A stretch of DNA of 64,000 nucleotides from a virus (IMGVR_UViG_3300036952_000026:1547-65546); one strand, 5' to 3'; counted from the first letter of the stretch, positions 4,545 through 45,219 are shown. Translations and numbers: made by a program. Notes: generated by a model not told the origin, from the sequence alone.

Positions 4545-4637
4545 AAAGTTTTTCCGGAGATCCCCCCGGAGCAAAAATATAGAGCCGGGCGATGCAGAGG
4601 GGGGGTGGGTTTTGCGAGACCCCTCCCCCCACCCTGC
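4545..4637. promoter_or_regulatory. intergenic G/C-tract inverted repeat and A/T-tract-flanked TCCCCCCGG at a module boundary
   Basis: GGGGGGGTGGG-TTTTGCGAGA-CCCCTCCCCCC imperfect IR; TCCCCCCGG (4561-4569) recurs at 44773-44781. Confidence 0.45.
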
Positions 4638-4642
4638 TGCCG

Positions 4643-4988: not shown

Positions 4989-7736
4989 CTATTCCTCACC
5001 GTTCATGGCTCGGTCCAGTGTGGATACTGACACACCCAACGCTGCTGCTACCTGCTGCCTCGTGTACTTACCAGATGCAAGCATGGACTCAGCCCTTGCT
5101 GCCTTGGTGTTGGACATCAGTCGCTTAGGCTTTGGTGTAGCCAGCTTCTTGACCTTGTCAATGTCCGTGTGTTTGAGGATGTCCTTGAGCCTGGCATTAC
5201 TAACAGCACCAGCCTGGATAGCTTCCCACTCACGATCACTGATCTCGATCATTGTCTTACCTGCACCAGTACGCTTACGTGCCAGCTCTAGGTGGCGGAA
5301 CTCAATGCGCTGAAGGTGTTCTCTATCAAGGTTCTTGTTGGACTGTTTGATAGCCCGAACCTGGGCACCGGCGATTACCTGGGCGGCTCGCTCACGAGGG
5401 GCGTTAAGCTGGGCGGTGTGCAACTTAGACGCCAACGATTCCACCTCACCAGCATACACCTTCTTGGCATGGCTGGATTGGGTAAGGTTGGGGGTCTTAG
5501 ATGCCTCGAGCCTAGCCTTGTTGGCCATACCCTTGAACTTGTTCGAATGATCTGCATACAACTTCTCAATGGGGTGCTTAGTAGAGAGGGTGTGTGCATC
5601 ATCCGTGTTAGCCAGACGCTTAACTTCAATCGTCTTAGGAACCACAGTACCATCACGACTGGTCCTTGTCTTACCCGTAGGTACGTACACAAGAGCGCCG
5701 GTCTTCGGATCGATAGGGCCGCCATCCTTAGCAGGCCGCAGCTTGCGATCAGGAATCCGTTCCTTAGCACCAGCCCTAGAGATCAGGGTAGATGCACCAC
5801 GACTATCAGGGTTAGAGGGATCGAACTGGAACTCATCCTTCAAAGCCTGAATACCAAAGTCCTTCTTGGCCTGCTTGTAATCAAGGTGGTGCTTCTCTGC
5901 ATCGATCGTCACCATCGAATACTTAACAGCCCGAAGAATCTTGTCATCAGACGCACCACGAATGGTCATGTCAGTAATGAGGTTTGAGGCCTCACCCATG
6001 ATTCGACCAGTCGTAGCAGAAGGATCCTTGTGATCCCTAATGCCAGGGGCATCATCTGCCAGCTTGTACAGACGCTTAGGTTCGAACCCCTTAAGTCCTT
6101 CAAGCATTGGCTTAGAGCGCAGCTTTCCAGAGTTGTTGGGAATCACGATGACCGTATCGCCATCGAAGTCCGCACCAGAAAGACGTTCAGCCACATCGGG
6201 GTGAATACCGATAGCATCAATCGAATCTAGACCAATCATCTTTCGTGCAGCACGATGTGCGTTGTTCACCACGAGTTCAGGAATCTCAAACGGCCCGCCA
6301 TGGGGATACCGAATGAGCGCAACCCTTGTGCCGTCTGCGTAACCAGGAGCAAACACTTCTGTCGGCTTCATCTTGTCAACTGGAAGGATTACGTGCCAAG
6401 CACTATCCTTGGTCAACGACACAGCATTGAGATGCACAGCGGCGTTATCGGTCTCACCAGCAAACGCCTCAAGCAACTTCTTCTTAACCGTAGGGTTGGT
6501 AAGACCCTTGATCTCATCGAACTCTTTCTGTCGCTTGTCTTGCGTCTTAGCCAGTTGCTCTCGAACAAGAGCGCCACTCTGCTTTGACAAGACCTGCGTA
6601 GAGATCGACTTTGACCAATCCTTCCATGCGCCTTCACCATTGACGATGTTCATCGCCGAGATGTTGACTTCGTTCTCTTCGCCGGTATTCTTGGTGATCT
6701 GTCGAACTACGGCGCCGAAAGGGAGTTCGCTGTCCTTCTTGATCTCCTTCATTGCCCCGAGCTTACCGTTCTCGAGAACCTTAGGATCGGTCTTACTCTT
6801 GTTGGTATTGAACTCGAGATCCACACCAGCAGGAAGATCGTCCTTGTAAATCGCCATACCCTTGAGGTAATGACCATCACCGACCTGGATTCGAACCTGC
6901 GCATACCGGTTCTCACCGAGCGACAGATCCTTTGCGCCGGGACGGACATAGATCACACCATCAGCCTTCGTTCCACCTTCTTCGGCATAACGAACCTTGA
7001 CCCGCTTGGGGTCCACAGGAATTGGGTCGTGCTTCTTCGACCACTTCTTACCACCATCAATGGAGAAACGATCGAGTTGCTGAACCTCATAGCGATTCAT
7101 GAAGAGATCGTGCTGTGTCGTACCAGGAGGACACAACACCTTGAGTTCGGTCTCATGCTTGGTACCGAGCTGAGGGATCTTCACCTTTTCAACGACGTAT
7201 CCCTGCTGCTTCAAGACATCAACGGAAGCGCGAAGCTTTTCCTTACTGATGCCGAGATGGTTCTCCACACCCTCACCGATGTCGATGTACTGCTTGCGAT
7301 CGACTTCATCCTTGAGCATGTTGGCTGTACCGATGAGAGAAGAGGCCTTCTCTGCGGCATCGGGTGCCAAGAGGGTACGTACGGTAGACTCTTTGGTCTT
7401 GGATCCGTACATTTGCAGAGCAATCTCACTATTGGACATTCCCTTGTCCTTGAGTTTCCTTGCGGTGTGGATCTGCTCTTGCTTTGCCGCATTACGTTCG
7501 ATGGTCATCCGGGCACGGAACTCTCCGCTCTTCATGCCCATGCCTTCGTAGATCTGCTTGTCGGTGAGGTTGTTTGGTGGCCTACGACATTCCTTCACCA
7601 GATCTAGCCACGTGAGGTTTCTCTGATTCATGTAGGACTGATGGTCCCCACCACTACCCCATGGGTAACGGCCCGACTTACGAGGCGTCCCGTAGTGCTT
7701 GATCTCTTCTGCTTTGAATACCACCACAGGGTTCAC
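4989..7736 (-). CDS. single-subunit double-psi-beta-barrel RNA polymerase (YonO/QDE-1-like superfamily) with N- and C-terminal HTH motifs
   Basis: Catalytic LSGADFDGD (DFDGD at 6156-6170) preceded by VALIRYPH; first-barrel motifs ADGVIYVR and QVRI..YLKGMA; HTHs KGMSNSEIALQM and YTRQQVAAALGVSVSTL. Confidence 0.82.
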   Translation of the reverse strand: MNPVVVFKAEEIKHYGTPRKSGRYPWGSGGDHQSYMNQRNLTWLDLVKECRRPPNNLTDKQIYEGMGMKSGEFRARMTIERNAAKQEQIHTARKLKDKGMSNSEIALQMYGSKTKESTVRTLLAPDAAEKASSLIGTANMLKDEVDRKQYIDIGEGVENHLGISKEKLRASVDVLKQQGYVVEKVKIPQLGTKHETELKVLCPPGTTQHDLFMNRYEVQQLDRFSIDGGKKWSKKHDPIPVDPKRVKVRYAEEGGTKADGVIYVRPGAKDLSLGENRYAQVRIQVGDGHYLKGMAIYKDDLPAGVDLEFNTNKSKTDPKVLENGKLGAMKEIKKDSELPFGAVVRQITKNTGEENEVNISAMNIVNGEGAWKDWSKSISTQVLSKQSGALVREQLAKTQDKRQKEFDEIKGLTNPTVKKKLLEAFAGETDNAAVHLNAVSLTKDSAWHVILPVDKMKPTEVFAPGYADGTRVALIRYPHGGPFEIPELVVNNAHRAARKMIGLDSIDAIGIHPDVAERLSGADFDGDTVIVIPNNSGKLRSKPMLEGLKGFEPKRLYKLADDAPGIRDHKDPSATTGRIMGEASNLITDMTIRGASDDKILRAVKYSMVTIDAEKHHLDYKQAKKDFGIQALKDEFQFDPSNPDSRGASTLISRAGAKERIPDRKLRPAKDGGPIDPKTGALVYVPTGKTRTSRDGTVVPKTIEVKRLANTDDAHTLSTKHPIEKLYADHSNKFKGMANKARLEASKTPNLTQSSHAKKVYAGEVESLASKLHTAQLNAPRERAAQVIAGAQVRAIKQSNKNLDREHLQRIEFRHLELARKRTGAGKTMIEISDREWEAIQAGAVSNARLKDILKHTDIDKVKKLATPKPKRLMSNTKAARAESMLASGKYTRQQVAAALGVSVSTLDRAMNGEE

Positions 7737-8281
7737 CCCCTCAGGGACTCGACGTAGTTATCGAACTCGACGATCTTCAGCATGATTGCTGCAACGTCGT
7801 CTGGGTTTGCGTCATCTTCCAGTTTGGCATCCCTTTGATAGATGGCGACATGGATGTTGATTGTGTGAGGGTCGATCTGATACTCGAGACAGAACAGTGC
7901 GGCGTAAACCATCAACTGCTCCAGCTTAGCCGGGGTGATGCCCGTTTTCAGATCGTGGATGATGAGATTCTCTCCATCAAAGCAGATCGTGTCTGCTGAG
8001 CCGAAGCAATTCTCGGAATAGACGAGCGTTTGCTCGCACACCATCCCAAGGTTAATCGCATCTGAGACATACGCGGCCAGAGCCTGATTGTCACTATCCA
8101 GTTTGATCCCCAAGCGAATCGCCTCATGGGCAAGTGCGTGGAGATCGGTTCCCCTTTTCGCAGCCTTCCAACTATGGAAGCGCGTTTCCAGCTGCTGATA
8201 GTCATACCTCAACCAGCTCGATTTACTCGGACTGAGGAAGGCGTGTTTATCGCGCAGAGCATAGTGCTCGTTGAATTCCAT
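7733..8281 (-). CDS. PD-(D/E)XK (Cas4-like) exonuclease
   Basis: HAFLSPS, GTDLH, EQTLVYS..FGSADTI..IHDLKTG..QLMVYA motifs; start trimmed to MEFNEH. Confidence 0.8.
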   Translation of the reverse strand: MEFNEHYALRDKHAFLSPSKSSWLRYDYQQLETRFHSWKAAKRGTDLHALAHEAIRLGIKLDSDNQALAAYVSDAINLGMVCEQTLVYSENCFGSADTICFDGENLIIHDLKTGITPAKLEQLMVYAALFCLEYQIDPHTINIHVAIYQRDAKLEDDANPDDVAAIMLKIVEFDNYVESLRG

Positions 8282-8552
8282 GAAGAACCTCGATTTCGTT
8301 TTCTGGAAAGATGAAAGCGGCATAGTGCATGTCGTCAAACATCTCGATGTAGTAGTCCTGATTCGGGCGGTGGCTTGCGTCCCATGACGCTTTCACCTCT
8401 AGCATTACCCAATAAGGACCGTACAAGACGATCAAGTCAGGGATGCCCTGTATCTCGTCGGGGTTGTTCTTCATCACGAATGAACCAGGCAGAACGCGCT
8501 GGATTTCGTCGATGAGGTAGTTCTGGTAACGGGTTTCGGCTTTTGTCGTCAT
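8247..8552 (-). CDS. VRR-NUC / Holliday junction resolvase-like nuclease
   Basis: GIPDLIVL..LEVKAS..RPNQ motif. Confidence 0.8.
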   Translation of the reverse strand: MTTKAETRYQNYLIDEIQRVLPGSFVMKNNPDEIQGIPDLIVLYGPYWVMLEVKASWDASHRPNQDYYIEMFDDMHYAAFIFPENEIEVLHGIQRALCSAR

Positions 8553-19753: not shown

Positions 19754-19844
19754 TGCTTTCTCCTTGGGTTGGTTTGAGATCGACACACGCCTATGCACCG
19801 TGTGGGTAACGGGCATAGGGTGGGGGGAACCGAGCAGGGGTGGC

Positions 19845-19928
19845 TCAGTCGTTGGTCTTCGCGTAGACGACTCCGGCCACGCCGAGGGCGGCGAGGACGA
19901 TGGCGACGATGGCGATGATCTTCTTCAT
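19845..19928 (-). CDS. cassette gene, 27-aa hydrophobic peptide MKKIIAIVAIVLAALGVAGVVYAKTND
   Basis: Promoter motif, SD and hand translation. Confidence 0.7.
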   Translation of the reverse strand: MKKIIAIVAIVLAALGVAGVVYAKTND

Positions 19929-20037
19929 GGGTTTCTCCTGTTGTGGGGTTCTCATTACACGCGTTGTAAAACTTGCGAGAAGCCTACACCGCATGTGGGG
20001 GCATGGGTGTAGGGTGGAACTTCACCTGACGGGATAG

Positions 20038-20199
20038 TCAGGCTCGTCGGAACGAGCGCACGAGGTTCGCGAGGCCATCGAGCACGTCCCGGAGGGCGTT
20101 GCCCACGGCGCGGAAGATGGACTTCACGCCGAGGACGGCAGCCAGGAACGTGGCGATGACGATCACGGCCAGCGTGAGCATGATTGCGATGATGAGCAT
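20038..20199 (-). CDS. cassette gene, 53-aa membrane protein MLIIAIMLTLAV...
   Basis: Promoter motif and SD. Confidence 0.75.
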   Translation of the reverse strand: MLIIAIMLTLAVIVIATFLAAVLGVKSIFRAVGNALRDVLDGLANLVRSFRRA

Positions 20200-20325
20200 G
20201 GGTTTCTCCTGATGTGGGGTTGGGTTCTCATTACACCCCATGTAAATGCTGCGACAGGCTTACACCCCGTGTATTGCGGGGGCTTGGGCCCGAGTTCACT
20301 GCTCCGTGCAGCGAGCTCATGTTGT

Positions 20326-20487
20326 TTACGGGTTGTCGTGCGACTCCTTGAGCTCTTCTTCGAATCTCCACAACCCTTCACAGAAATCGCACCACCGATC
20401 AACGGCGGCACTGATGTAGCGTTGGGCAATGAAGAACAGCGGAAATAGCACAATGAATCTGACCACGACGAATGCCGTGTGCAGCAT
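20326..20487 (-). CDS. cassette gene, 53-aa membrane protein MLHTAFVVVRF...
   Basis: Promoter motif and SD. Confidence 0.7.
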   Translation of the reverse strand: MLHTAFVVVRFIVLFPLFFIAQRYISAAVDRWCDFCEGLWRFEEELKESHDNP

Positions 20488-20579
20488 GTTGCTCCTGGGT
20501 GGTTGGATGTTCTCATTACATCCGTTGTAGGGGTTGCGGAACGACATAGATGCCTTGTGGGGCACCCAGAGGTCGTGGA

Positions 20580-20738
20580 TCAACGGCGGTAGTAGGTCCG
20601 CGGGGGTCCGTAGTTGCGCTGGACACCCAGGCGCTTCTCGGCGTACCGGTTGATCAGTCGCGTCAGGGTTCTGACGGTCTTGATGATCTGGTACATCAGG
20701 AAGGCGCGGGTGACGAACGAGCAAAAGCGGTTCTTCAT
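20580..20738 (-). CDS. cassette gene, 52-aa basic protein MKNRFCSF...
   Basis: Promoter motif and SD. Confidence 0.7.
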   Translation of the reverse strand: MKNRFCSFVTRAFLMYQIIKTVRTLTRLINRYAEKRLGVQRNYGPPRTYYRR

Positions 20739-20824
20739 GGGTTTTCTCCTGTGGTTGATTCTCATTACACCCCTTGTAGAGAATGCGAAAGAGAGATGCC
20801 TTGTATGGCAGAGCTCCCATTGCA

Positions 20825-21001
20825 CTAGCTGACGGGGGTCAGGTGGGGTGGATCGGTCTGGTCGTCCTCGGTCTTCTTGAGGCCCAGCGGGTCGTTCATG
20901 TACGTCGCGTAGAACCAGGCAGCGAGGGTGCTGCCGGTCAACACGCCGATCGTGAACAACACGATGGCTCGGTAGAATGCGAGGGCGGTCTTCTGGATCA
21001 T
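20825..21001 (-). CDS. cassette gene, 58-aa membrane protein MIQKTALAFY...
   Basis: Promoter motif, AGGAGG SD, hand translation. Confidence 0.7.
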   Translation of the reverse strand: MIQKTALAFYRAIVLFTIGVLTGSTLAAWFYATYMNDPLGLKKTEDDQTDPPHLTPVS

Positions 21002-21087
21002 GATTCCTCCTAAGAATCAGTTAATGTCATTATACCCTATGTAAACCGTGCGAAAGAGAGATGCTTTGCAGCAGAGCTCTCCTTCGA

Positions 21088-21300
21088 TTACTTCTTCTCG
21101 AAGGTGAAGGACACGACCTTCTGGTCGGCGTCGAACGTGGTGGTCAGCTTGACGATGCCGAACGCCGGGACGATGTTGTTCCGCACAGCGAGGATCAAGA
21201 GCTCCTCATTGAGGGTCTTGGGCCGGTGTGCGAGAATGTCGTCGTGGGCGCCCAGCTCGAAAAGAGTGGACTTCTGGGATTCGATCAGACGAAGGGCCAT
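21088..21300 (-). CDS. cassette gene, 70-aa protein MALRLIESQ...
   Basis: Promoter motif and SD. Confidence 0.75.
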   Translation of the reverse strand: MALRLIESQKSTLFELGAHDDILAHRPKTLNEELLILAVRNNIVPAFGIVKLTTTFDADQKVVSFTFEKK

Positions 21301-21386
21301 TGTTTCTTCTCCTTGATTGGGTTCTCATTAAGAGCCGTGTATAACCCGCGAAACAGAGATGCCTTGTGGGGCAGAGCTCCGTTCGA

Positions 21387-21599
21387 TCAGTACGGGCCGT
21401 TGGCTCGCATGTGGTCGACGATCGTGCTGGTGAGGCCCATCTCTTCCACGGCGGCCTCCACCTGGTGGAACTTCTCACGCTCGAACATCAGGAAGAACAG
21501 CGCGAGGCTGGTTCCTGAGATCAAGACGTAGGTCGTTCCCTGGTAGAGGTCGGCGCGGTTGTCTGGGTTGTTGTACCAGCGTCGGATCTTCTTCAACAT
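21387..21599 (-). CDS. cassette gene, 70-aa membrane protein MLKKIRRWY...
   Basis: Promoter motif and SD. Confidence 0.75.
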   Translation of the reverse strand: MLKKIRRWYNNPDNRADLYQGTTYVLISGTSLALFFLMFEREKFHQVEAAVEEMGLTSTIVDHMRANGPY

Positions 21600-21689
21600 G
21601 GGTTTCTCCTTGGGTTGAACTTCTCATTAGAGGCATTGTAGAGAATGCGAAAGAGAGATGCCTTGTGGGGCAGAGCTCCCGTTGAAGGG

Positions 21690-21917
21690 CTACTTCAACA
21701 CGGTGAACGGGGTGTCCTGGGGGACGATGAGGCGCAGCTCCATCAGGTCCTGGTGCTTGCGGCAGAGGTGCTTGGCGCCGACGGGCCAGACCACCACGAT
21801 CACCTGATCCCGGGCGTTGAGGCCGAGGTTGGTGATGCGGTAGTCGTTCCCGCCGAGCTGCACGAACTGGTTGAGCTTCAGGTCGATGGCGTTGAGGGTC
21901 TTCGTCTTCTTGGGCAT
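21690..21917 (-). CDS. cassette gene, 75-aa beta-rich protein MPKKTKTLNA...
   Basis: Promoter motif and SD. Confidence 0.75.
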   Translation of the reverse strand: MPKKTKTLNAIDLKLNQFVQLGGNDYRITNLGLNARDQVIVVVWPVGAKHLCRKHQDLMELRLIVPQDTPFTVLK

Positions 21918-22002
21918 GGAGTTCTCCTTGTTGTTGTCTCCATTACATCCCTTGTAGGAAATGCGAAACAGAGATGCCTTGTAGGCAGAGCTCCGTCTGG
22001 AA

Positions 22003-22245
22003 TCACTTCCAGAATTGCCAGAACTTCTTCTTGCGAGGTTCGGACTTCGACCAGGTGGCCAGGTCTTGGGCGACGAGGCGCATCTCAGCGATGGACTCCG
22101 CCAGGTCTCGGTGGGCATCGAGGATCTCTCCGCGGGTGAGCGGGTTGACATCGACGCTTCCGAGGCGCTGGTTGAGGTCCTTCAACTTGTCTGCGTATCG
22201 CCGAAGCTGGTCGCGGCCGTAATCCATCTCGAATTGACGGTTCAT
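22003..22245 (-). CDS. cassette gene, 80-aa coiled-coil protein ending KKKFWQFWK
   Basis: Promoter motif and SD. Confidence 0.75.
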   Translation of the reverse strand: MNRQFEMDYGRDQLRRYADKLKDLNQRLGSVDVNPLTRGEILDAHRDLAESIAEMRLVAQDLATWSKSEPRKKKFWQFWK

Positions 22246-22331
22246 GGTGTCTCCTGTGGTTGGTTCTCATTACACGCGTTGTACCTCATGCGACAAAGAG
22301 AGATGCTTTGCAGCAGAGCTCCCCTGGTGAA

Positions 22332-22493
22332 CTACCAGTTGTTCTTCATGTAGCGAAGCAGGGACGTCTCGCCGGTCCGCGCCTCGACCACCTGGGGCCA
22401 GATCTGTCGCGCCCGCCGCAGGTTGCGGGGGAACGAGAACAGGCCTTCGATGATGAGGGCGAGGACGACGAATCGCCCGATGAGCTTGAGCAT
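22332..22493 (-). CDS. cassette gene, 53-aa protein MLKLIGRFVVLAL...
   Basis: Promoter motif, SD, hand translation. Confidence 0.7.
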   Translation of the reverse strand: MLKLIGRFVVLALIIEGLFSFPRNLRRARQIWPQVVEARTGETSLLRYMKNNW

Positions 22494-22584
22494 GGTTTCT
22501 TCTCCTGGTTGATGGTTCTCATTATGAGGCGTGTAATCTATGCGAAAGAGAGATGCCTTGTGGGCAGAGCTCCCTTGGAACGGA

Positions 22585-22776
22585 CTAGAGGGACTGGCCG
22601 AACGTGATTCGCTTCAGGCGGATCAGGAACGCCACCGGCGCCAGGGCCACCGGGTACAGGTACAGCTTGTACGGGTTGGTCTCGAAGGACTTGGCCTCGT
22701 TCTTGATGTACAGGTACTGGGTGACGATGGTGTAGGGGGCGAGGATGATCTCACCGATCAAGCGGATGATCAGCAT
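22585..22776 (-). CDS. cassette gene, 63-aa hydrophobic protein MLIIRLIGEI...
   Basis: Promoter motif and SD. Confidence 0.7.
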   Translation of the reverse strand: MLIIRLIGEIILAPYTIVTQYLYIKNEAKSFETNPYKLYLYPVALAPVAFLIRLKRITFGQSL

Positions 22777-22877
22777 GGGTTTCTCCTTGTTGTGGGTTCT
22801 CATTATGAGACGTGCAGGATATGCGACAAAAGGAAAGGCGTTGTCTAAGCCCCGTGTGGGGGCGTAGACGTCGGGAA

Positions 22878-22991
22878 CTACCAGTGGTAGTTCGGTCGGA
22901 CGAGGTCGTTGTCCACCGAGTACTCGCGGGCCCGGTCGCTGCCGAAGCAGGTTCCGAACGCGTAGTACAGGGCGGTGACGATCTTCATCAT
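22878..22991 (-). CDS. cassette gene, 37-aa peptide MMKIVTALYY...
   Basis: Promoter motif, SD, hand translation. Confidence 0.65.
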   Translation of the reverse strand: MMKIVTALYYAFGTCFGSDRAREYSVDNDLVRPNYHW

Positions 22992-23081
22992 GACTTCTTC
23001 TCCTGGGGGTTGGTTCTCATTACAACCACTGTAGGATATGCGAAGACCGTTGTACCTTGTGGGGTACGCTGGCCTCGAGGG

Positions 23082-23231
23082 TCACTCGGGGTAGATCTTC
23101 TTCAGGGTCTCGCTGTGCTTGTCGTAGATGTCGCTGTTCAGCCGCTCCCCCAACTCGTGGGCCTTGAGGCCGTATGAGTCGAGAGCGCTGGCGAACGACG
23201 AGATGATGCGGACGTACATGATGCGGATCAT
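23082..23231 (-). CDS. cassette gene, 49-aa protein MIRIMYVRII...
   Basis: Promoter motif, SD, hand translation. Confidence 0.65.
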   Translation of the reverse strand: MIRIMYVRIISSFASALDSYGLKAHELGERLNSDIYDKHSETLKKIYPE

Positions 23232-23330
23232 GGGTTGAATCTCCTGTTGTTGGTTCTCATAATAAGGGCTGTAAATCGTGCGAGAAAATACAAGACCATT
23301 GTGCCTTGTAGGGCACGCCGGCCTTGGACA

Positions 23331-23370
23331 TCAGCCTCGGGGCTGGGTCACGTCGATCTCGATCGATCAT
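23331..23370 (-). pseudogene. collapsed cassette gene relic
   Basis: ATG ATC G joined out of frame to ATC GAG ATC GAC GTG ACC CAG CCC CGA GGC TGA, between an intact promoter and hairpin. Confidence 0.5.
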
Positions 23371-23479
23371 GATTTCTTCTCCTGGTGGTTGGATGTTCTC
23401 ATTATGACCCTTGCAGATTATGCGAAAGCGATAACCCTTGCCCCATGCGCGAGGCACGGGGGTTGGGTTGGTTGAGGGA

Positions 23480-23614
23480 CTACTGGGGGTCGGCTCCGAA
23501 GAGCATCATCACGAGGCCGATCACGGTCAGCACCATCCAGAGCCCGAACAAGCCGGCGAGCAGCTTGAGGGTGTTGGTGGCGATGAAACGGACGGCGTTG
23601 TTGATGGCGGTCAT
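23480..23614 (-). CDS. cassette gene, 44-aa membrane protein MTAINNAVRF...
   Basis: Promoter motif, SD, hand translation. Confidence 0.7.
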   Translation of the reverse strand: MTAINNAVRFIATNTLKLLAGLFGLWMVLTVIGLVMMLFGADPQ

Positions 23615-23657
23615 GGGTTTCTCCTGGTGTAGGGTTCTCATTATTAGGGCTGTAATT

Positions 23658-23801
23658 CCTGCGAGAACAAAAGGAAAATACGTGTAGGAACAACGAGCGG
23701 GGCCAGAATAGAGGCTTACGAGTGATCAACTCGCAATCTCTAAACCGGCCCCGCCGTCTGTCAGAGGACTACCTCCTCGCTATCACCCCGGGGGATGACC
23801 C
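23658..23801 (-). repeat. structured element copy 1 (conserved 53+61 nt flanking a variable 30-nt hairpin)
   Basis: Near-identical to 24304-24438; GCGGGGCC/GGCCCCGC stem. Confidence 0.85.
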
Positions 23802-23837
23802 ATGTACCATGCACGAGGCATAGTACTGGGGTCTGGG

Positions 23838-23966
23838 TTACTTGTAGGTGTGGTGCATCTTGAGGATGAACACCGCAACCGCGAAGAGGTCCAGCAGGAT
23901 GTAGGCGAAGAATCGCCGACGGTCCGTATGGAACATCTTGAGGTTGGGGATGATCATGAACAGCAT
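23838..23966 (-). CDS. cassette gene, 42-aa membrane protein MLFMIIPNLK...
   Basis: Promoter motif, AGGAGGT SD, hand translation. Confidence 0.65.
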   Translation of the reverse strand: MLFMIIPNLKMFHTDRRRFFAYILLDLFAVAVFILKMHHTYK

Positions 23967-24050
23967 GATTGATACCTCCTAGTATCTCATTACAAGGCCT
24001 GTAATTCCTGCGAGAAACAGAGGTGCCTTGTAGGCAGAGCTCCGTCGGAA

Positions 24051-24260
24051 CTAGTCCTGGATCTTGCATTCGCTGATGTAGTTGATCTGGTCCTGGATCT
24101 TCGCGATCGTCAGCGTGAGGTCGTTCATGATCGACCCGCAGATCTCCTCCAAGGAACGGTCATCGTAGTCGATGAACATCTTGGCGAGGTCCGCGTAGTC
24201 GGCCTTGTACTTGTCACGAAGGGTCACGAGTTGATCTCGGATGGTCTTGTAATCAGGCAT
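24051..24260 (-). CDS. cassette gene, 69-aa coiled-coil protein MPDYKTIRD...
   Basis: Promoter motif and SD. Confidence 0.75.
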   Translation of the reverse strand: MPDYKTIRDQLVTLRDKYKADYADLAKMFIDYDDRSLEEICGSIMNDLTLTIAKIQDQINYISECKIQD

Positions 24261-24303
24261 GGGTTTCTCCTGGGGGTTGGTTCTCATTACAACCGCTGCA
24301 GAT

Positions 24304-24438
24304 CCTGCGAGAACAAAAGGAAAATACGTGTAGGAACAACGAGCGGGGCCAGAATAACAAGTGTGGACACCACCTGTTAAACCGGCCCCGCCGTCTGTCA
24401 GCGGACTACCTCCTCGCTATCACCCCGGGGGATGACCC
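24304..24438 (-). repeat. structured element copy 2 (variable 21-nt hairpin)
   Basis: One mismatch to copy 1 across 114 conserved nt. Confidence 0.85.
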
Positions 24439-24461
24439 GAATCGGAGGGCTCCACTGCGTC

Positions 24462-25037
24462 CTAGTACCGCTCTTCTCCTCGGATGCCCAGCGCGTCACG
24501 CTGTTCACGCGAGAAGGTCTTTCCACCCTCACCTTCGCGACGCGGAAGAACCAGCGACTTGACCGCCCACATGACGGTCTCCTCGAGATGGACCTTGGCT
24601 TGCGCGGTCTCGGGGGTGTCTCGGGTCACGCGATCGATCAGCTCACAGAGCTCGTCGGCCTTGTGACGGATCTCCATGATGCGCTCGAGGTTGGCTTCAT
24701 CCGGGGCGTGGTTGGTCAGCGACATGGCGAGGCTGGACTGAAGCGGCTCGTCGAGCTCCTTGGACCGATGCTTGGCCCGGATCGATCGCACCGACTGCTG
24801 GGTGATCCCAAGTGCTTCGCCGATGTCCGCATCGTTGAGACCTTCTTCGGTCATGTCGAGGATGCGTCGAAGCCTCCACTGGGCTTCGGTCTCGTCGTAC
24901 TGACGAAGCTCCTGAGCTCGGTAGTCCTGGGGCAGTCCAGCGTCGCTCTTCTCACCCTCGTCGGGGTCGGGCTTCACGTCTTGGACTGGGCACGCGTGAT
25001 CGGGATCGTCAGATCCACACTTGGCGCATTGGTACAT
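24462..25037 (-). CDS. HTH plus Acb2/Tad1-like helical hairpin fusion protein
   Basis: GLNDADIGEALGITQQSV (HTH); TNHAP..ERI.EIRHKA.EL..LI...ETAQAKVHLEETVMWAVK. Confidence 0.6.
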   Translation of the reverse strand: MYQCAKCGSDDPDHACPVQDVKPDPDEGEKSDAGLPQDYRAQELRQYDETEAQWRLRRILDMTEEGLNDADIGEALGITQQSVRSIRAKHRSKELDEPLQSSLAMSLTNHAPDEANLERIMEIRHKADELCELIDRVTRDTPETAQAKVHLEETVMWAVKSLVLPRREGEGGKTFSREQRDALGIRGEERY

Positions 25038-27039: not shown

Positions 27040-27127
27040 TGGGTTTTCTCCTTGTTGTGTGTGAGACGTTAAGAGAACTGTAGTATGGCGTCCTCATCAG
27101 CTAGGCTGATAAGGTACTACAGTATCT

Positions 27128-27155
27128 CTCATTATGAGGGTTGTAGATCTTGCGA
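27128..27155 (-). promoter_or_regulatory. phage promoter motif with structured 5' leader
   Basis: TCGCA-AGATC-TACA-ACCCTCA-TAATGAG. Confidence 0.85.
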
Positions 27156-30727: not shown

Positions 30728-30858
30728 TCTTGTTTCTCCTGTTGTTGGGTTGTGTTGGTATTACATTTGAGGACCCGTAGGGACACCTAATCCCCTCTTC
30801 CACGACTTCACAGGGAGCGGTCGCAGGCGTGCTTAAAGGCTATACACTAGGGGTCCAG

Positions 30859-31308
30859 TGGAGGTGGGGGGAATCGAACCCCCGTCCACGATGGCTTTCT
30901 GTACACACATCTACATGGTAGCTGGTTTGATGAGCCAGCACTCGGGGCCAAACCGGGTAGGGTTTGACGCTCCACCACTCAGTCTTTCCTGAGAGTCAAT
31001 GTTTTAGCCAGTGTTGCTGTTTCAAACCCGCTGGCAGGTCATGCGAGCAGTCTGACTAGGTCAGACGGCGACCGAAGCATCGGCGAAGAACGCCTCAGCC
31101 TCAGCGTCGAAGTTAGCCATGGCGTCAGCCACAACCAGATCCTCGACAGCAGCCTCGAAGGCTGCATCATTCGCAACGGCAACGTGATCGTTGGCGTTTA
31201 ATGGTTGAAGTAGCTGTTGTTTAGGCCGAAGCCAACCAGTCTGCCACTTCCTAACTGGTCATGCAGTGCGTACGTACTCGTTCCACCATGTCGAAACCGG
31301 TCACCCCC
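30859..31308 (-). ncRNA. ssrA: phage-encoded tmRNA (450 nt), tag ORF 31061-31195
   Basis: 5' GGGGGTGACCGGTTTCGAC; 3' GGACGGGGGTTCGATTCCCCCCACCTCCA; 7-bp acceptor stem with G3.U and A discriminator; ATTAAAC precedes the GCC resume codon. Confidence 0.95.
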
Positions 31309-32848: not shown

Positions 32849-32944
32849 GTTTTCTTCTCCTGGGTTGAAAATGGAAATGAGAAGTACCAAGCAAAGTTAG
32901 TGGGAAGCTAACTAATATTGGGGTCAAGATATTGCTATCTCCTT

Positions 32945-32972
32945 CTCATTAAAGGGCTTGTAAATCTTGCGA
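32945..32972 (-). promoter_or_regulatory. phage promoter motif with structured 5' leader
   Basis: TCGCA-AGATT-TACA-AGCCCTT-TAATGAG. Confidence 0.85.
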
Positions 32973-34326: not shown

Positions 34327-34610
34327 TAGTCCTCACTCTTTTCGTAGGTCTGCTCGAAGATGTCCGGCTTGCAGGGGTAGAACTCGCCCTGGACACCCTT
34401 GATGATGTAATCGCCAAAGCTCGCAGTCATGACCCCTTCCAGAGTCGTGATTTCGAGATATGACGTACCTTGTTCGAGATCCTCCTTGAAGTGGAACACG
34501 CCCTCGCACCAGTTGGCGAGTTGCGTGCCCACTTCGAGAACCTGATCCGGTCCCATGCCGACGAGACGTCGAGCCTCGATCTTCACGGGCTTCTTCGTGT
34601 AGAACCCCAT
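34326..34610 (-). CDS. conserved phage protein (PGDYG-like: ITTLEG..GDYIIKGVQGEFYPCKPDIF)
   Basis: Recognisable motif. Confidence 0.75.
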   Translation of the reverse strand: MGFYTKKPVKIEARRLVGMGPDQVLEVGTQLANWCEGVFHFKEDLEQGTSYLEITTLEGVMTASFGDYIIKGVQGEFYPCKPDIFEQTYEKSED

Positions 34611-35110
34611 CAGAAGGGCTCCTCATTGGCGGGCGCATCAGCCTTGGCGACGCCTGCGGTGAAGCCGTACTTCATCATGAGGGGGTCCTCATCGATGGTG
34701 ACGTAGGCCGTCTTCAGATATGCAGCACGCCCGGTGCCCATACCGCTGTTGTGGTCGTACGGTCGAAGCACGCAGTCGAACTGCTTGATGTCGACCGAAT
34801 CGAGGATCGCGACCATGTCCTCGGTGAGGATCGTGTGACCCTTGGAGGTGATCATCACGATGACGGGTGGCTTGTAGCCCTGGAACCCGCACTTCACCTG
34901 GAGGAAATGGAACCCCTCCGACCCTTCGTGGTCGCTGGGCTCCTTGAACTTGACGTTCCACTTGCGGGTCGCCATGTCTGCTGCCTCTTCTGGGGTCAGC
35001 ACGAGACAGAAGGTACGCGTGCCTGCCGGGTTGAAATCCGTTGCCCTACCCTCGAAGTTGGAGTAGACGATCGGATGATCTTCGAAGGTTTCGAGACCTG
35101 CTTCAGTCAT
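34610..35110 (-). CDS. single-stranded DNA-binding protein
   Basis: YSNFEG..FNPAG.RTFCLVL..AYLKTAYVTI, acidic C-terminus ending EEPF; next to the replicase. Confidence 0.7.
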   Translation of the reverse strand: MTEAGLETFEDHPIVYSNFEGRATDFNPAGTRTFCLVLTPEEAADMATRKWNVKFKEPSDHEGSEGFHFLQVKCGFQGYKPPVIVMITSKGHTILTEDMVAILDSVDIKQFDCVLRPYDHNSGMGTGRAAYLKTAYVTIDEDPLMMKYGFTAGVAKADAPANEEPF

Positions 35111-42930: not shown

Positions 42931-42964
42931 GGGGGTCTCCTTGGTTCTTGTGGTTGTCTTCTCA

Positions 42965-43738
42965 CTACATACTATGTAGCGTGTGCGATCCGAGCGGCTT
43001 CGTGTAGTTGAACGTGAACGCCAGACACGGAACGCCCTTGTCGGTGAGCGTTGGCGTGAACACGAGATCCATCAGTCCGGTTTCCACATCCCAACCGAGG
43101 TTGTCGATATGGTGATTCGGATAGACTTCGATTTCGTGGTAGAACTCCTTCACTGACATCCAACGCTCCTTGAGCAGCCGTTCGTTCACACGATTCACGG
43201 CTGCCTTGAGCGTTTGCATGTCGGACTCGAAGTATCTACCCGTCGTTAGGTCGCAACACAAACTGTCCCCACCCGCAGCCATGATGACCTCTCGGGCCTG
43301 ACTATGCGGATGAACGGTCTGCATCTGCTCTTCGACGACGGCGGCTTGAACCTTTTCCGCCTTACTCTTGCCCAAGGTTTCCTCAACCTTGGCTCGGTAC
43401 TCAGCGAATGCACGCTCAGTAAGCGAATATGCCGCGACAGCCGCAGCAGTACGACGCGTATGTACTCGATGGGAACCGATCACGCAGGCGACGGTGGTGC
43501 CACCGACAATTGCCGCCGGAACGAACTCCGGCCACACGATCTTTGCCTTGTCCATGAACGTCTGTTGATCCCAGGGGTTCGCGTCTTCGCGATTGAGCTT
43601 CTTGGACGCTTCGAAGGCGCCCTTCGCGCTCAAATATGCCGTGGCGATGACACCGCCGGCGGCACACGCGGTCATGATCTCTGGCGAATTGATCTTGGCT
43701 TTCTTGATCATCCGATTCAGCATTACGTTGTAGTTCAT
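42965..43738 (-). CDS. DUF6353-like protein, paralog of 40516-41391
   Basis: NSPEIMTACAAGGVIATA..RRTAA..FAEYRAKV..GRYFES. Confidence 0.7.
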   Translation of the reverse strand: MNYNVMLNRMIKKAKINSPEIMTACAAGGVIATAYLSAKGAFEASKKLNREDANPWDQQTFMDKAKIVWPEFVPAAIVGGTTVACVIGSHRVHTRRTAAAVAAYSLTERAFAEYRAKVEETLGKSKAEKVQAAVVEEQMQTVHPHSQAREVIMAAGGDSLCCDLTTGRYFESDMQTLKAAVNRVNERLLKERWMSVKEFYHEIEVYPNHHIDNLGWDVETGLMDLVFTPTLTDKGVPCLAFTFNYTKPLGSHTLHSM

Positions 43739-43990
43739 CGGCGATTCCTGGATTCACGAATGAAGATCCAGATGAGCCAAAAGCCGGCAGTGATGCAGAC
43801 CATGAAGCAGTCAAACAGAAATGCCATACATCCGTACTTGCGCATGGTTCATTCCTTTCTTGGTTGGGGCGAAATTGAAATGAGAAGCAAGGGCTGCTGA
43901 CCCATCTAAAATCAGCCGTTAAGTGCTATCAGCACCGCCAGGTAGGCAAGCTCTTGCTGTGGGCTTGCGCCTTAAGTGTCTTACCTTCTT

Positions 43991-44018
43991 CTCATTAGGG
44001 TCGCTGTAGAACTTGCGA
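43991..44018 (-). promoter_or_regulatory. phage promoter motif with structured 5' leader
   Basis: TCGCA-AGTTC-TACA-GCGACCC-TAATGAG. Confidence 0.85.
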
Positions 44019-44113
44019 GAAAAAGACATACCATGGGGGAGCGTCTTGGCTTATCCAATAACTCCCCCATGGGGTCTGTCTCTTCTGTTAGTTGGTTGTG
44101 TGAGGATTGGTTC

Positions 44114-44141
44114 CTCATTATGGCCGCTGTAAATCCTGCGA
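44114..44141 (-). promoter_or_regulatory. phage promoter motif heading an empty cassette
   Basis: TCGCA-GGATT-TACA-GCGGCCA-TAATGAG. Confidence 0.85.
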
Positions 44142-44196
44142 GACGCCCCTATACCAACTGTAGCTCGGGGGCTAGAGTTGGTACGGGGGTGAGGGA

Positions 44197-44451
44197 CTAC
44201 TCCCCGGCGGTCTCGGACTCGGGGGTCTCGGACTCGGGGGTCGGGGCCTTCTCGGCCTTCCCGGCCTTGTAGGTGGCGATCTTGTCACGGCCGAAGTTGA
44301 CGACCTTCTTGCCGACGGTCACGACGCCGACGACGGCTGCTCCGGTGAACAGCACGGCGCCGACGGTGGCGGCGGCAGAGGTGGCATCCTCTTCCGTGAG
44401 CACGATCTCCTCCTCAGGGGTGGGGTCGGTCTCGGTGGTCTCGTCTTCCAT
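44197..44451 (-). CDS. cassette-type small membrane protein (84 aa)
   Basis: Promoter at 44491, AAGGAG SD, central TM segment. Confidence 0.75.
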   Translation of the reverse strand: MEDETTETDPTPEEEIVLTEEDATSAAATVGAVLFTGAAVVGVVTVGKKVVNFGRDKIATYKAGKAEKAPTPESETPESETAGE

Positions 44452-44490
44452 GTCTTTCTTCTCCTTGTGATGGGATCTTGGGGTTGGTTC

Positions 44491-44518
44491 CTCATTATGG
44501 CCGCTGTAGAACTTGCGA
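44491..44518 (-). promoter_or_regulatory. phage promoter motif
   Basis: TCGCA-AGTTC-TACA-GCGGCCA-TAATGAG. Confidence 0.85.
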
Positions 44519-44890
44519 GTGCGTGAAAGCTCGAAAGCCCGTGTAGGGGCTCGCGAACTGAGGTTGTCATTACAGTCCTTGCGGCTTTTGCGACCTCTTC
44601 ACACGTATGTGCGCGTCAGATGAGGCCAAATATACCCATTTCTCCGCATTGCCCTCTAGGTCGCCGTCTAAGCGATTCCATACGAGTTAAGGGACAATCA
44701 TACAACTTTGATGCTGAGAGGCCGGCACAGCGCATTCTAGAGGGGTGTTTTTCCTGGAGATTGGTCAAAATTTCCCCCCGGGCAATTTTTACGAGAAAAA
44801 TGACATGCCTTGTAGGAAATTCGAGGGACGAACCCAGAAGCCGTGTAGATTTGGGTCTAAACAGCTTCTGGGCTCATTCCTTCCGTGGGA

Positions 44891-45172
44891 TCAGTGCTTC
44901 TTGCCGATGAAGGGCAGCGGGATCTTCGAGGTCCAGACGTTGTGCGTCTCGAACAGCATCACGCCGACTCCCAGGGCGAGGTTGAACAGGCCGGTGCCGA
45001 TCACGTCGCGACTCATGGGTTCAGCCTTCTTGGGCTTCACCTTGTTGAGGCGCTCGGTGACCGACAGCAGGTCCTTGTACTCGTCGGTCCGAGGGTCGAG
45101 TGCTGCCATCTCAGAAACGACTCGCGTCTGTTCCTCTTCGATGGGCTGAGGCTTCTTGAGCTTTTCCAGCAT
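44891..45172 (-). CDS. hypothetical protein (93 aa) with C-terminal hydrophobic segment
   Basis: Promoter variant at 45192, AAGGAG SD. Confidence 0.7.
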   Translation of the reverse strand: MLEKLKKPQPIEEEQTRVVSEMAALDPRTDEYKDLLSVTERLNKVKPKKAEPMSRDVIGTGLFNLALGVGVMLFETHNVWTSKIPLPFIGKKH

Positions 45173-45191
45173 TCTTCTCCTTATGGTTGGT

Positions 45192-45219
45192 CTCATTATA
45201 GGCTATGCCTATCTTGCGA
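45192..45219 (-). promoter_or_regulatory. phage promoter motif variant (GGCA replaces TACA)
   Basis: TCGCA-AGATA-GGCA-TAGCCTA-TAATGAG. Confidence 0.7.

Follow-up and report, generated by a model that had tools for sequence, protein, structure and literature searches.

A tandem array of 17 small-gene cassettes with shared promoter-like linkers in a 65.5-kb siphophage genome

The virus record IMGVR_UViG_3300036952_000026 of IMG/VR comprises 65.5 kb with a CheckV completeness of 100%, and the 64,000-nucleotide stretch analyzed here (positions 1547-65546; hereafter the window) covers nearly all of it. All genes in the window lie on the minus strand. This uncultured wastewater phage encodes siphovirus structural genes, a primase-polymerase, a helicase, thymidylate synthase, a transfer-messenger RNA (tmRNA), and an annealing protein. 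Gordonia cluster DJ phages, Rhodococcus phage ReqiPoco6, and some Streptomyces phages encode large terminases about 78% identical to the one found here. Between 24310 and 19845 lies an array of 17 small units, each placing one short open reading frame (ORF) behind the same promoter-like motif. Neither megablast nor blastn found a real match to this array among 50,697 phage records, and at least half of its sampled words are present in the DNA of wastewater runs from two further studies.

The motif was searched as TCGCA-N6-ACA-N7-TAATGAGAA with at most three mismatches allowed, and shuffled sequence served as control. The window holds 25 matches, all on the minus, and hence coding, strand, compared with a mean of 0.13 and a maximum of 1 in the shuffles. 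Seventeen of them run head to tail from 24310 to 19949. Behind each of these 17, without exception, come a C/A-rich leader of 20-28 nt, a Shine-Dalgarno site of the AGGAG type, the start codon ATG, and a single ORF encoding 27-80 aa. The units and the hairpin that closes the array are as follows.

c1, 24051..24310, minus strand: motif 24310-24281, leader, ORF 24260-24051 (69 aa, soluble, helical)
c2, 23838..24013, minus strand: motif 24013-23984, ORF 23966-23838 (42 aa, hydrophobic); RNA contig 23789-23971
c3, 23480..23664, minus strand: motif 23664-23635, ORF 23614-23480 (44 aa, hydrophobic)
c4 ("collapsed"), 23257..23425, minus strand: motif 23425-23396, ORF 23370-23257 (37 aa)
c5, 23082..23283, minus strand: motif 23283-23254, ORF 23231-23082 (49 aa)
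c6, 22878..23043, minus strand: motif 23043-23014, ORF 22991-22878 (37 aa); the homologue in relative L199 (see below) has different neighbors
c7, 22585..22826, minus strand: motif 22826-22797, ORF 22776-22585 (63 aa, hydrophobic)
c8, 22332..22545, minus strand: motif 22545-22516, ORF 22493-22332 (53 aa, hydrophobic N-terminus)
c9, 22003..22293, minus strand: motif 22293-22264, ORF 22245-22003 (80 aa, soluble)
c10, 21690..21966, minus strand: motif 21966-21937, ORF 21917-21690 (75 aa, predicted small beta-barrel)
c11, 21387..21650, minus strand: motif 21650-21621, ORF 21599-21387 (70 aa); the homologue in relative L198 is 93% identical
c12, 21088..21351, minus strand: motif 21351-21322, ORF 21300-21088 (70 aa); presence varies among strains
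c13, 20825..21053, minus strand: motif 21053-21024 (TATAAT version), ORF 21001-20825 (58 aa, hydrophobic)
c14, 20580..20788, minus strand: motif 20788-20759, ORF 20738-20580 (52 aa, basic)
c15, 20326..20539, minus strand: motif 20539-20510, ORF 20487-20326 (53 aa, hydrophobic, CxxC)
c16, 20038..20254, minus strand: motif 20254-20225, ORF 20199-20038 (53 aa, hydrophobic)
c17, 19845..19978, minus strand: motif 19978-19949, ORF 19928-19845 (27 aa, hydrophobic)
Closing hairpin after c17, 19780..19844, minus strand: CCCACA loop

The next gene past the array (19753-19508) has a Shine-Dalgarno site and lacks the motif. Within the array, 34-71 nt separate each stop codon from the following motif, with two exceptions: 173 nt after c2, where the spacer contains an additional structured element of 141 nt, and -27 nt at c4, where spacer and hairpin are absent and the ORF runs through the c5 promoter. 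A hairpin folds in 16 of the 17 spacers (-11 to -29 kcal/mol, a range that leaves out the 173-nt c2 spacer at -78.8). About 12 of the 16 stem-loops display a Y-ACA-A/C loop, and the 3' arm ends 0-2 nt before TCGCA. A terminator scan was passed by three or four stem-loops with a T-rich tail; T-runs occur in relatives. The linkers are direct repeats, 60-90% alike, that combine the promoter-like motif with a stable stem-loop and end in the Shine-Dalgarno site and start codon of the next gene.

The ORFs share no detectable similarity with one another, the best pairwise E-value being 0.05 between hydrophobic stretches. None matched Pfam or PHROGs (for the c1 ORF, no Pfam match above threshold and no PHROG match), a tblastn search with c9 against the 50,697 phage records gave no match, and no homologues of cassette ORFs were found among more than 100 other loci bearing the motif. 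A hydrophobic 17-residue stretch occurs in nine or ten ORFs, and about half of the peptides are predicted small membrane proteins. For c10, just 3 homologues were found among 5.8 billion proteins; its ESM Atlas model (predicted local distance difference test, pLDDT, 0.74) resembles small beta-barrels of the KOW/EF-P-N type (TM 0.72-0.79). Assignment of c10 to the KilR cell-division inhibitor family was rejected, as the Atlas feature score of 0.89 is below the usable level and Pfam gave no support. An earlier note on this DNA had described 17 self-contained one-gene units with a shared motif, a C/A-rich leader, and AGGAG, most of them followed by a hairpin, with mutually unrelated ORFs of which about 9 of 16 carry a hydrophobic segment; the pattern scan, unit anatomy, spacer folding, and ORF comparisons agree with this description. 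The cassette that it regarded as collapsed is real, but actually carries a 37-aa ORF running through the next promoter.

Two relatives of the array, L198 and L199, were found in metagenome contigs by a search with the phage's own linker. L198 derives from a 63.7-kb contig that is collinear with the window and 75-92% identical to it. The comparison covers the downstream half of its array, which reads c11-c13-A-B-C-D-c14-c15-c16-c17: it lacks c12 and has four other cassettes separating c13 from c14. The order in L199 is c6-E-c14-c15-c16. At the junctions in both relatives, the private parts (leader, ORF, and 3' tail) agree with those of the window, and the switch falls inside the shared hairpin and promoter, which leaves chimeric linkers. 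Where c12 is missing, L198 has a chimeric linker composed of parts of the c11/c12 and c12/c13 linkers, and the insertion between c13 and c14 likewise has its breakpoints within the linker. Cassettes shared with L198 and L199 retain their relative order.

Strain-level differences of the same kind appear in wastewater runs, where contigs of at least 99% identity to the array came from three studies. An X3 contig (4826 nt, depth 41) lacks c7, c12, and c13. Its c7 skip (22508->22795, 286 nt) has both ends 2-8 nt past TAATGAGAA, about 585 nt of new sequence stand between c10 and c11, and about 116 extra letters, deduced from record coordinates, lie at 23363-23368, at the start of c4. The wastewater run X2 lacks the c12 body (skip 21091->21322). 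Both ends lie in linkers at matching register in 12 of 20 joints, compared with 13% by chance, and the breakpoint varies in position between hairpin, promoter, and leader. Joints that go back and short-sided skips in run X7 were not counted as proof of reordering. As a separate observation, the X3 strain carries within c9 (22098-22216) a 117-nt patch replaced by diverged sequence of the same length between flanks of 95-100% identity, so mosaic exchange occurs also within an ORF. Among cultured phages, gp37 of Gordonia phage OhMyWard corresponds to an indel of one cassette in the comparison with OlgasClover, with motif copies on either side (32693 and 33071), and the central region of OhMyWard is covered to 16-58% in the other listed DJ genomes.

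Because two metagenomic relatives, three wastewater runs, and two cultured DJ phages differ by whole cassettes with breakpoints in linkers, sequence comparison demonstrates cassette gain, loss, and replacement at these sites. The earlier note had proposed that linker homology permits gain, loss, and shuffling, with breakpoints in the linkers and an order that varies across relatives. Breakpoints do fall there, and order is not identical across relatives; gain, loss, and replacement were found, but reordering was not, since shared cassettes keep their order.

Two recombination genes are relevant to the route of this turnover.

Single-strand annealing protein, 34610..35110, minus strand: phrog_4787 (E=8e-38), candidate catalyst of short-linker recombination
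Exonuclease, 7733..8338, minus strand: phrog_3953 (E=9e-66), possible partner of the annealing protein

Tyrosine and serine recombinases (PF00589, PF00239) are absent across the whole 65.5-kb genome, no integrase, resolvase, or repressor was found in it, and the phage looks lytic. Homologous exchange is the likely route of cassette turnover, because the annealing protein and exonuclease are encoded and an integrase or resolvase is not. The earlier note had called the architecture integron-like, an explanation in which site-specific recombination at the repeated linker captures cassettes. Integron cassette arrays do resemble the phage array in their tandem single-gene units, repeated junctions, and variable content. 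However, integron cassettes are promoterless and expressed from one Pc promoter, whereas each phage unit has its own promoter-like motif; the phage linkers are direct repeats in which nothing similar to an attC structure was found; and the breakpoint varies within the linker, as for homologous exchange. With no tyrosine or serine recombinase in a genome estimated as 100% complete, the integron comparison did not hold up, and capture by this route is very improbable.

Expression evidence comes from one metatranscriptome run, in which eight RNA contigs of 157-269 nt match the array at 100% identity, each inside a single cassette; parts of the stretch without RNA contigs, both flanks included, were left out of this evidence. 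The whole motif occurs in none of the eight (simulated P about 6e-4 under random placement). Five start 3-19 nt after the motif end (random placement P about 5e-5), among them the contigs of c3 (23476-23632), c5 (23077-23249), and c10 (21668-21933), which start 3, 5, and 4 nt past it. The contig ends do not lie at repeated 31-mers, and DNA contigs of other runs pass through the promoters. These contigs are a weak hint at separate per-cassette transcripts and away from one polycistronic transcript. Had the array been read as one such transcript without starts at the motifs, the expectation of the earlier note would have failed; the RNA contigs show no sign of such read-through.

The same contigs bear on a different explanation, in which the motif is an oriented operator or roadblock, similar to the stoperators of cluster A mycobacteriophages, or an RNA-processing signal in a polycistronic transcript. 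In its favor are the orientation, intergenic position, and large number of the copies; the conserved hairpin loop might also serve in processing, and processing at the same site would look alike in contigs. Yet no repressor or integrase was found in this apparently lytic phage, the motif keeps a fixed spacing to leader and Shine-Dalgarno site and has a -10-like core, and the RNA contigs stop just downstream of it and do not cross. An operator or processing role is accordingly rated as quite unlikely.

If the motif is a promoter, its reader has to be considered. Recognition of a -10 element of the sigma-70 type depends on A at -11 and T at -7 as key bases. The motif is a poor fit to such a promoter, because these bases are often missing: in the NNTAAT register A stands at -11 in 10 of 25 copies, and in the TAATGA register position -7 is A. 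A TTGACA/TATAAT scan was passed by one of the 17 array copies (3 sites found, 2.0 expected). The strongest box, TCGCA, lies at about -31 to -27 and not at -35, and GAGAA is as invariant as TAAT.

The motif extends far beyond this phage. OhMyWard carries 11 copies with the same boxes and spacing, in the version TCGCAGGAATTACAnGCCCTATAATGAGAC plus leader, and the conserved leader CCCTAYGAAAGGA and a Shine-Dalgarno site follow each copy. Within IMG/VR the motif was found in more than 100 stretches, for example in L096 with 20 copies in 11 kb, each with leader and Shine-Dalgarno site; the phage-specific linker pattern was absent there. In Lactococcus phage CHPC971 (locus L117), the strict actinophage pattern has no copy, and a homologous variant surfaced through a repeat search: TTCACAnGTTTTACAnnnnCTATAGTAGAAAG occurs seven times with the same spacing between its boxes, along with T-run terminators and tiny membrane ORFs. 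The present phage shares the family core, TCRCA-N6-ACA-N7-TA(A/G)T on the gene strand upstream of leader and Shine-Dalgarno site. Judged by these pattern matches, the motif is a hallmark of a large siphophage family that includes Gordonia DJ, Arthrobacter, Streptomyces, and Lactococcus 1706-like phages and many uncultured ones. The genome announcements of Vardy and Conley, DJ phages, reported 5 copies of a 43-50 nt motif with TATAAT in a central small-gene region and interpreted it as a sigma-70 -10 element (PMC9671010, PMC10868162), and a 2026 paper described many small transmembrane genes at the center of DJ-type genomes. Turnover at the motif and its link to a polymerase are not part of the DJ announcements.

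Duplications were also observed in CHPC971. A whole cassette encoding a 21-aa membrane peptide is present as a tandem copy at 97% identity (21392-21488 and 21536-21632), and a 124-nt segment at 20498-20745 is perfectly duplicated. Recent duplication of cassettes seems to explain both, here in a cultured member of the family.

A candidate reader of the motif is encoded downstream of the array.

Single-chain two-barrel RNA polymerase homologue, 4989..7736, minus strand: 915 aa, helix-turn-helix (HTH) modules, candidate motif reader

The 915-aa protein matches PHROG 4291 end to end (E=0), with HTH_7 at residues 876-909. This group is the phage 1706 family of YonO-like two-barrel polymerases (PMC2919709). 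A gene of this family was found in 250 phage records, where it is almost always the last of the large genes. All 17 IMG/VR records that carry the motif and have a completeness of at least 90% encode the polymerase. Among 21 polymerase-bearing records, 13 contain strict motif copies on the gene strand, compared with 1 control match. On these counts the association of motif and polymerase is one of co-inheritance and falls short of proof of recognition. A promoter paper on SD13 of phiSASD1 was considered as a bench test of the motif and set aside as irrelevant, phiSASD1 having no polymerase gene of the PHROG 4291 family. Conservation of the motif across hosts of two phyla argues for a phage-encoded reader. 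Reading by the phage polymerase or another phage factor has a slightly better than even chance, and reading by host sigma-A alone is markedly less probable. The earlier note had suggested early host-takeover or anti-defense peptides; the cassette genes may be middle genes instead of early ones, since the motif is poor as a sigma-70 promoter and travels with a phage RNA polymerase.

A possible but doubtful alternative is a classical early region, in which the motif would be a conserved host sigma-A promoter, host RNA polymerase would transcribe the array immediately upon injection, as with T4 early genes or the SPO1 host-takeover module, and the phage polymerase would serve later genes. Relatives carry a perfect TATAAT, the start predicted 7 nt downstream of it agrees with the RNA contig ends, and the announcements took the motif for a sigma-70 -10 element. 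Downstream, and on the same strand, the array is followed by the polymerase gene, which has no motif of its own; this layout resembles T7. On the other hand, just 1 of 17 copies passes the sigma-70 scan, A at -11 is found in 40% of copies, and the best-conserved box is displaced from -35. Host sigma by itself hardly accounts for boxes and spacing that persist between high-GC actinophages and a Lactococcus phage, and no second motif for polymerase-dependent late genes was found.

Selection on the ORFs was assessed against the two relatives. Reading frames, start codons, and Shine-Dalgarno sites are conserved across all three genomes (window, L198, and L199). The ratio of non-synonymous to synonymous change (dN/dS), pooled against L198, is 0.54. 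Cassettes c14 and c15 are under purifying selection (0.14-0.32), and the changes in c11, c13, and c17 relative to L198 are almost all non-synonymous, at small counts. The ORFs look like fast-evolving accessory proteins; some may be weakly constrained, given the pooled ratio and the non-synonymous excess in several cassettes, and some may be of very recent origin. A role of the peptides in host manipulation directed at the membrane, or in exclusion, is a guess. This evolutionary pattern leads to the idea of a gene nursery, in which duplicated linkers express the DNA between them and many ORFs would be young or de novo instead of acquired. All ORFs are orphans, about half are merely hydrophobic, "empty" and "collapsed" units exist, several cassettes show dN >= dS, and CHPC971 carries the 97% identical tandem copy of its 21-aa peptide cassette. 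However, c14 and c15 keep their reading frames in three genomes at low dN/dS, c10 has a confident compact predicted fold, and a non-coding precursor was found for no ORF. The nursery explanation is unlikely, and it would be compatible with the model that follows.

The preferred reading, to which a probability of roughly 0.7 is assigned, is that the array consists of 17 autonomous expression cassettes whose linker is a unit of both expression and recombination. It builds on what is observed directly: the anatomy, the family-wide spread of the motif with its link to the polymerase gene, and the cassette indels with linker breakpoints. The model adds an active promoter with its start site, the polymerase that reads it, the enzymes of recombination, and whatever role the peptides may have. 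Private to each unit would be one small orphan ORF with its leader, its Shine-Dalgarno site, and a short 3' tail of a few bases. Shared among the units would be the stem-loop linker with its Y-ACA-A/C loop, abutting a 30-bp promoter of the form TCGCA-N6-(T)ACA-N7-TAATGAGAA. Transcription most likely would start a few bases past GAGAA and mostly stop at the next stem-loop, giving one short mRNA per gene. The two-barrel polymerase with its built-in HTH modules, or another phage factor, would read the motif, and not host sigma-A holoenzyme on its own. Since the linkers resemble one another (60-90%) and the ORFs do not, homologous recombination between linkers would add, remove, or replace whole cassettes, and the annealing protein and exonuclease of the phage may assist.

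Several points weigh against this reading. The perfect TATAAT of relatives is usable by host sigma-A. Most stem-loops have no U-tract, so termination is an assumption. Logan contigs cannot prove transcript starts, the RNA comes from one study, and RNA libraries may contain DNA. Short-sided joints may reflect linker similarity instead of true adjacency. The co-occurrence of motif and polymerase can be explained by inheritance within a shared lineage. The pooled dN/dS and the excess of non-synonymous over synonymous changes in several cassettes belong here as well. Moreover, a pattern scan of the window places no motif before the polymerase gene and found no second repeated motif ahead of late genes.

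Among known systems, the promoter-early stem-loop (PeSL) cassettes found in T4-like phages are the closest (Arbiol et al. 2010, PMC2839356; Comeau et al. 2014, PMC4122927). In both, linkers of promoter and stem-loop end in a Shine-Dalgarno site and start codon before small orphan genes of a hyperplastic region, and insertions, deletions, and replacements between close relatives break in the linkers. In T4-like phages, PeSLs on either side of orphan genes bring about modular shuffling. The linkers of the present array also stand upstream of orphan genes in a variable region. Differences lie in the promoter, the fold, and the host. PeSL promoters match the Escherichia coli sigma-70 consensus and were shown to be active (PMC2839356, PMC4122927), whereas the phage motif is a non-canonical putative promoter shared by a polymerase-encoding siphophage family, with a match to the host -35/-10 consensus in 1 of 17 copies. 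The PeSL stem-loop lies in or around the promoter, and that of the phage directly upstream with a conserved loop. Hosts of the present array are Gram-positive, so that phage type and host phylum differ.

Gordonia DJ phages share the same motif upstream of small, often membrane-protein genes, with all genes on one strand. Their announcements list 5 copies, compared with 17 strictly tandem one-gene units and 8 further copies here, and the array lies downstream of the replication genes in the present phage but between tail and replication genes in DJ phages. A looser likeness extends to the SPO1 host-takeover module and T4 early genes, which are clusters of small genes without assigned function. 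Many of these genes have a strong promoter and a Shine-Dalgarno site to themselves, and host RNA polymerase reads the promoters as soon as infection begins.

The 8 further motif copies and the structured element of the c2 spacer complete the picture of the locus.

Second, looser motif group, 42959..45219, minus strand: six copies, upper coordinates 45219, 44593, 44518, 44141, 44018, and 42988
Isolated motif copy, 32943..32972, minus strand: from the pattern scan
Isolated motif copy, 27126..27155, minus strand: followed by a hairpin leader
Structured element copy 1, 24311..24445, minus strand: about 135 nt, runs into the first cassette promoter
Structured element copy 2, 23665..23805, minus strand: between c2 and c3

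The second group precedes small membrane ORFs and includes the "empty" unit (44111-44019) that the earlier note had pointed out: promoter 44141-44112 is followed by 93 nt without a Shine-Dalgarno site or credible ORF until promoter 44018. After the copies at 43739-44018 and 27040-27155, long structured non-coding stretches stand in place of Shine-Dalgarno site and ORF, namely about 250 nt ahead of a DUF6353 gene and a hairpin leader from 27125 downstream. The motif promoter may also drive RNAs or regulated leaders.

The structured element comprises a small hairpin, a long GC-rich hairpin with variable tip, and a U-rich tail. Its two copies bracket c1-c2 and have identical flanks, whereas their apical stems consist of different sequences that nevertheless pair in each copy. 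In an X7 contig, 97 other letters connect 23764 with 24497, which leaves one element copy and no c1-c2. Rfam holds no family for the element or the spacer hairpins, and no copy of the element was found in any fetched locus. The element could act as an insulator or strong terminator, or it could be a small RNA.

Further observations concern the genome around the array.

tmRNA, 30856-31308: Rfam RF00023, 89.9 bits

This tmRNA is carried by a siphophage of 65 kb. The gene directly upstream of the array (24462-25037) encodes an HTH and an Acb2/Tad1 hairpin domain (PF24729, E=1.4e-10), and a possible anti-defense sponge would thus adjoin the accessory array; a related-locus search in IMG/VR with this gene and c9 as queries gave no match. 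GC skew on the plus strand is +0.13 across the array (20001-24000), compared with about -0.13 to +0.05 in other 2-kb bins, so the cassette coding strand is unusually C-rich. At 4575-4642, a few hundred bases past the polymerase gene, a very strong G/C hairpin (GGGTGGGGGGAGGGG...CCCACCCCCCCTC) is followed by a T-run. Since the polymerase gene is the last gene before the genome end in relatives, this hairpin may mark the physical genome end or the point where the right-arm transcript stops. In CHPC971, the stretch upstream of the polymerase gene (46000-46475 of L117) contains a repeat of about 35 nt, CTATCACGAAAAAACTTCGGGAAAACTTCGGGATTG. Two full copies lie at about 46026 and 46165, and a third at about 46286 is partial and consists of CTATCACGAAAAAAC only. 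These repeats may be a control region or origin beside the polymerase gene.

Outside T4-like phages, the array offers a clean natural case of linkers that serve as expression and recombination unit for accessory genes, with strain-level cassette flux directly visible in public wastewater data from several studies. The 25 aligned natural copies of a conserved putative promoter, possibly that of an uncharacterized one-chain RNA polymerase, make the specificity of this enzyme directly testable. The linkers would provide a compact orthogonal promoter and terminator set for Gram-positive hosts, and the 17 orphan peptides with their variable relatives form a candidate list for toxicity, exclusion, and anti-defense screens. 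More tentatively, the motif could be the private promoter of the two-barrel RNA polymerase, with the HTH modules reading TCGCA and TACA and the linker acting as a portable expression socket. If this were true, DNA dropped between two sockets would at once be transcribed, translated, and insulated, and the array would be an exchange platform and peptide nursery in a phage family spanning Actinobacteria and Firmicutes.

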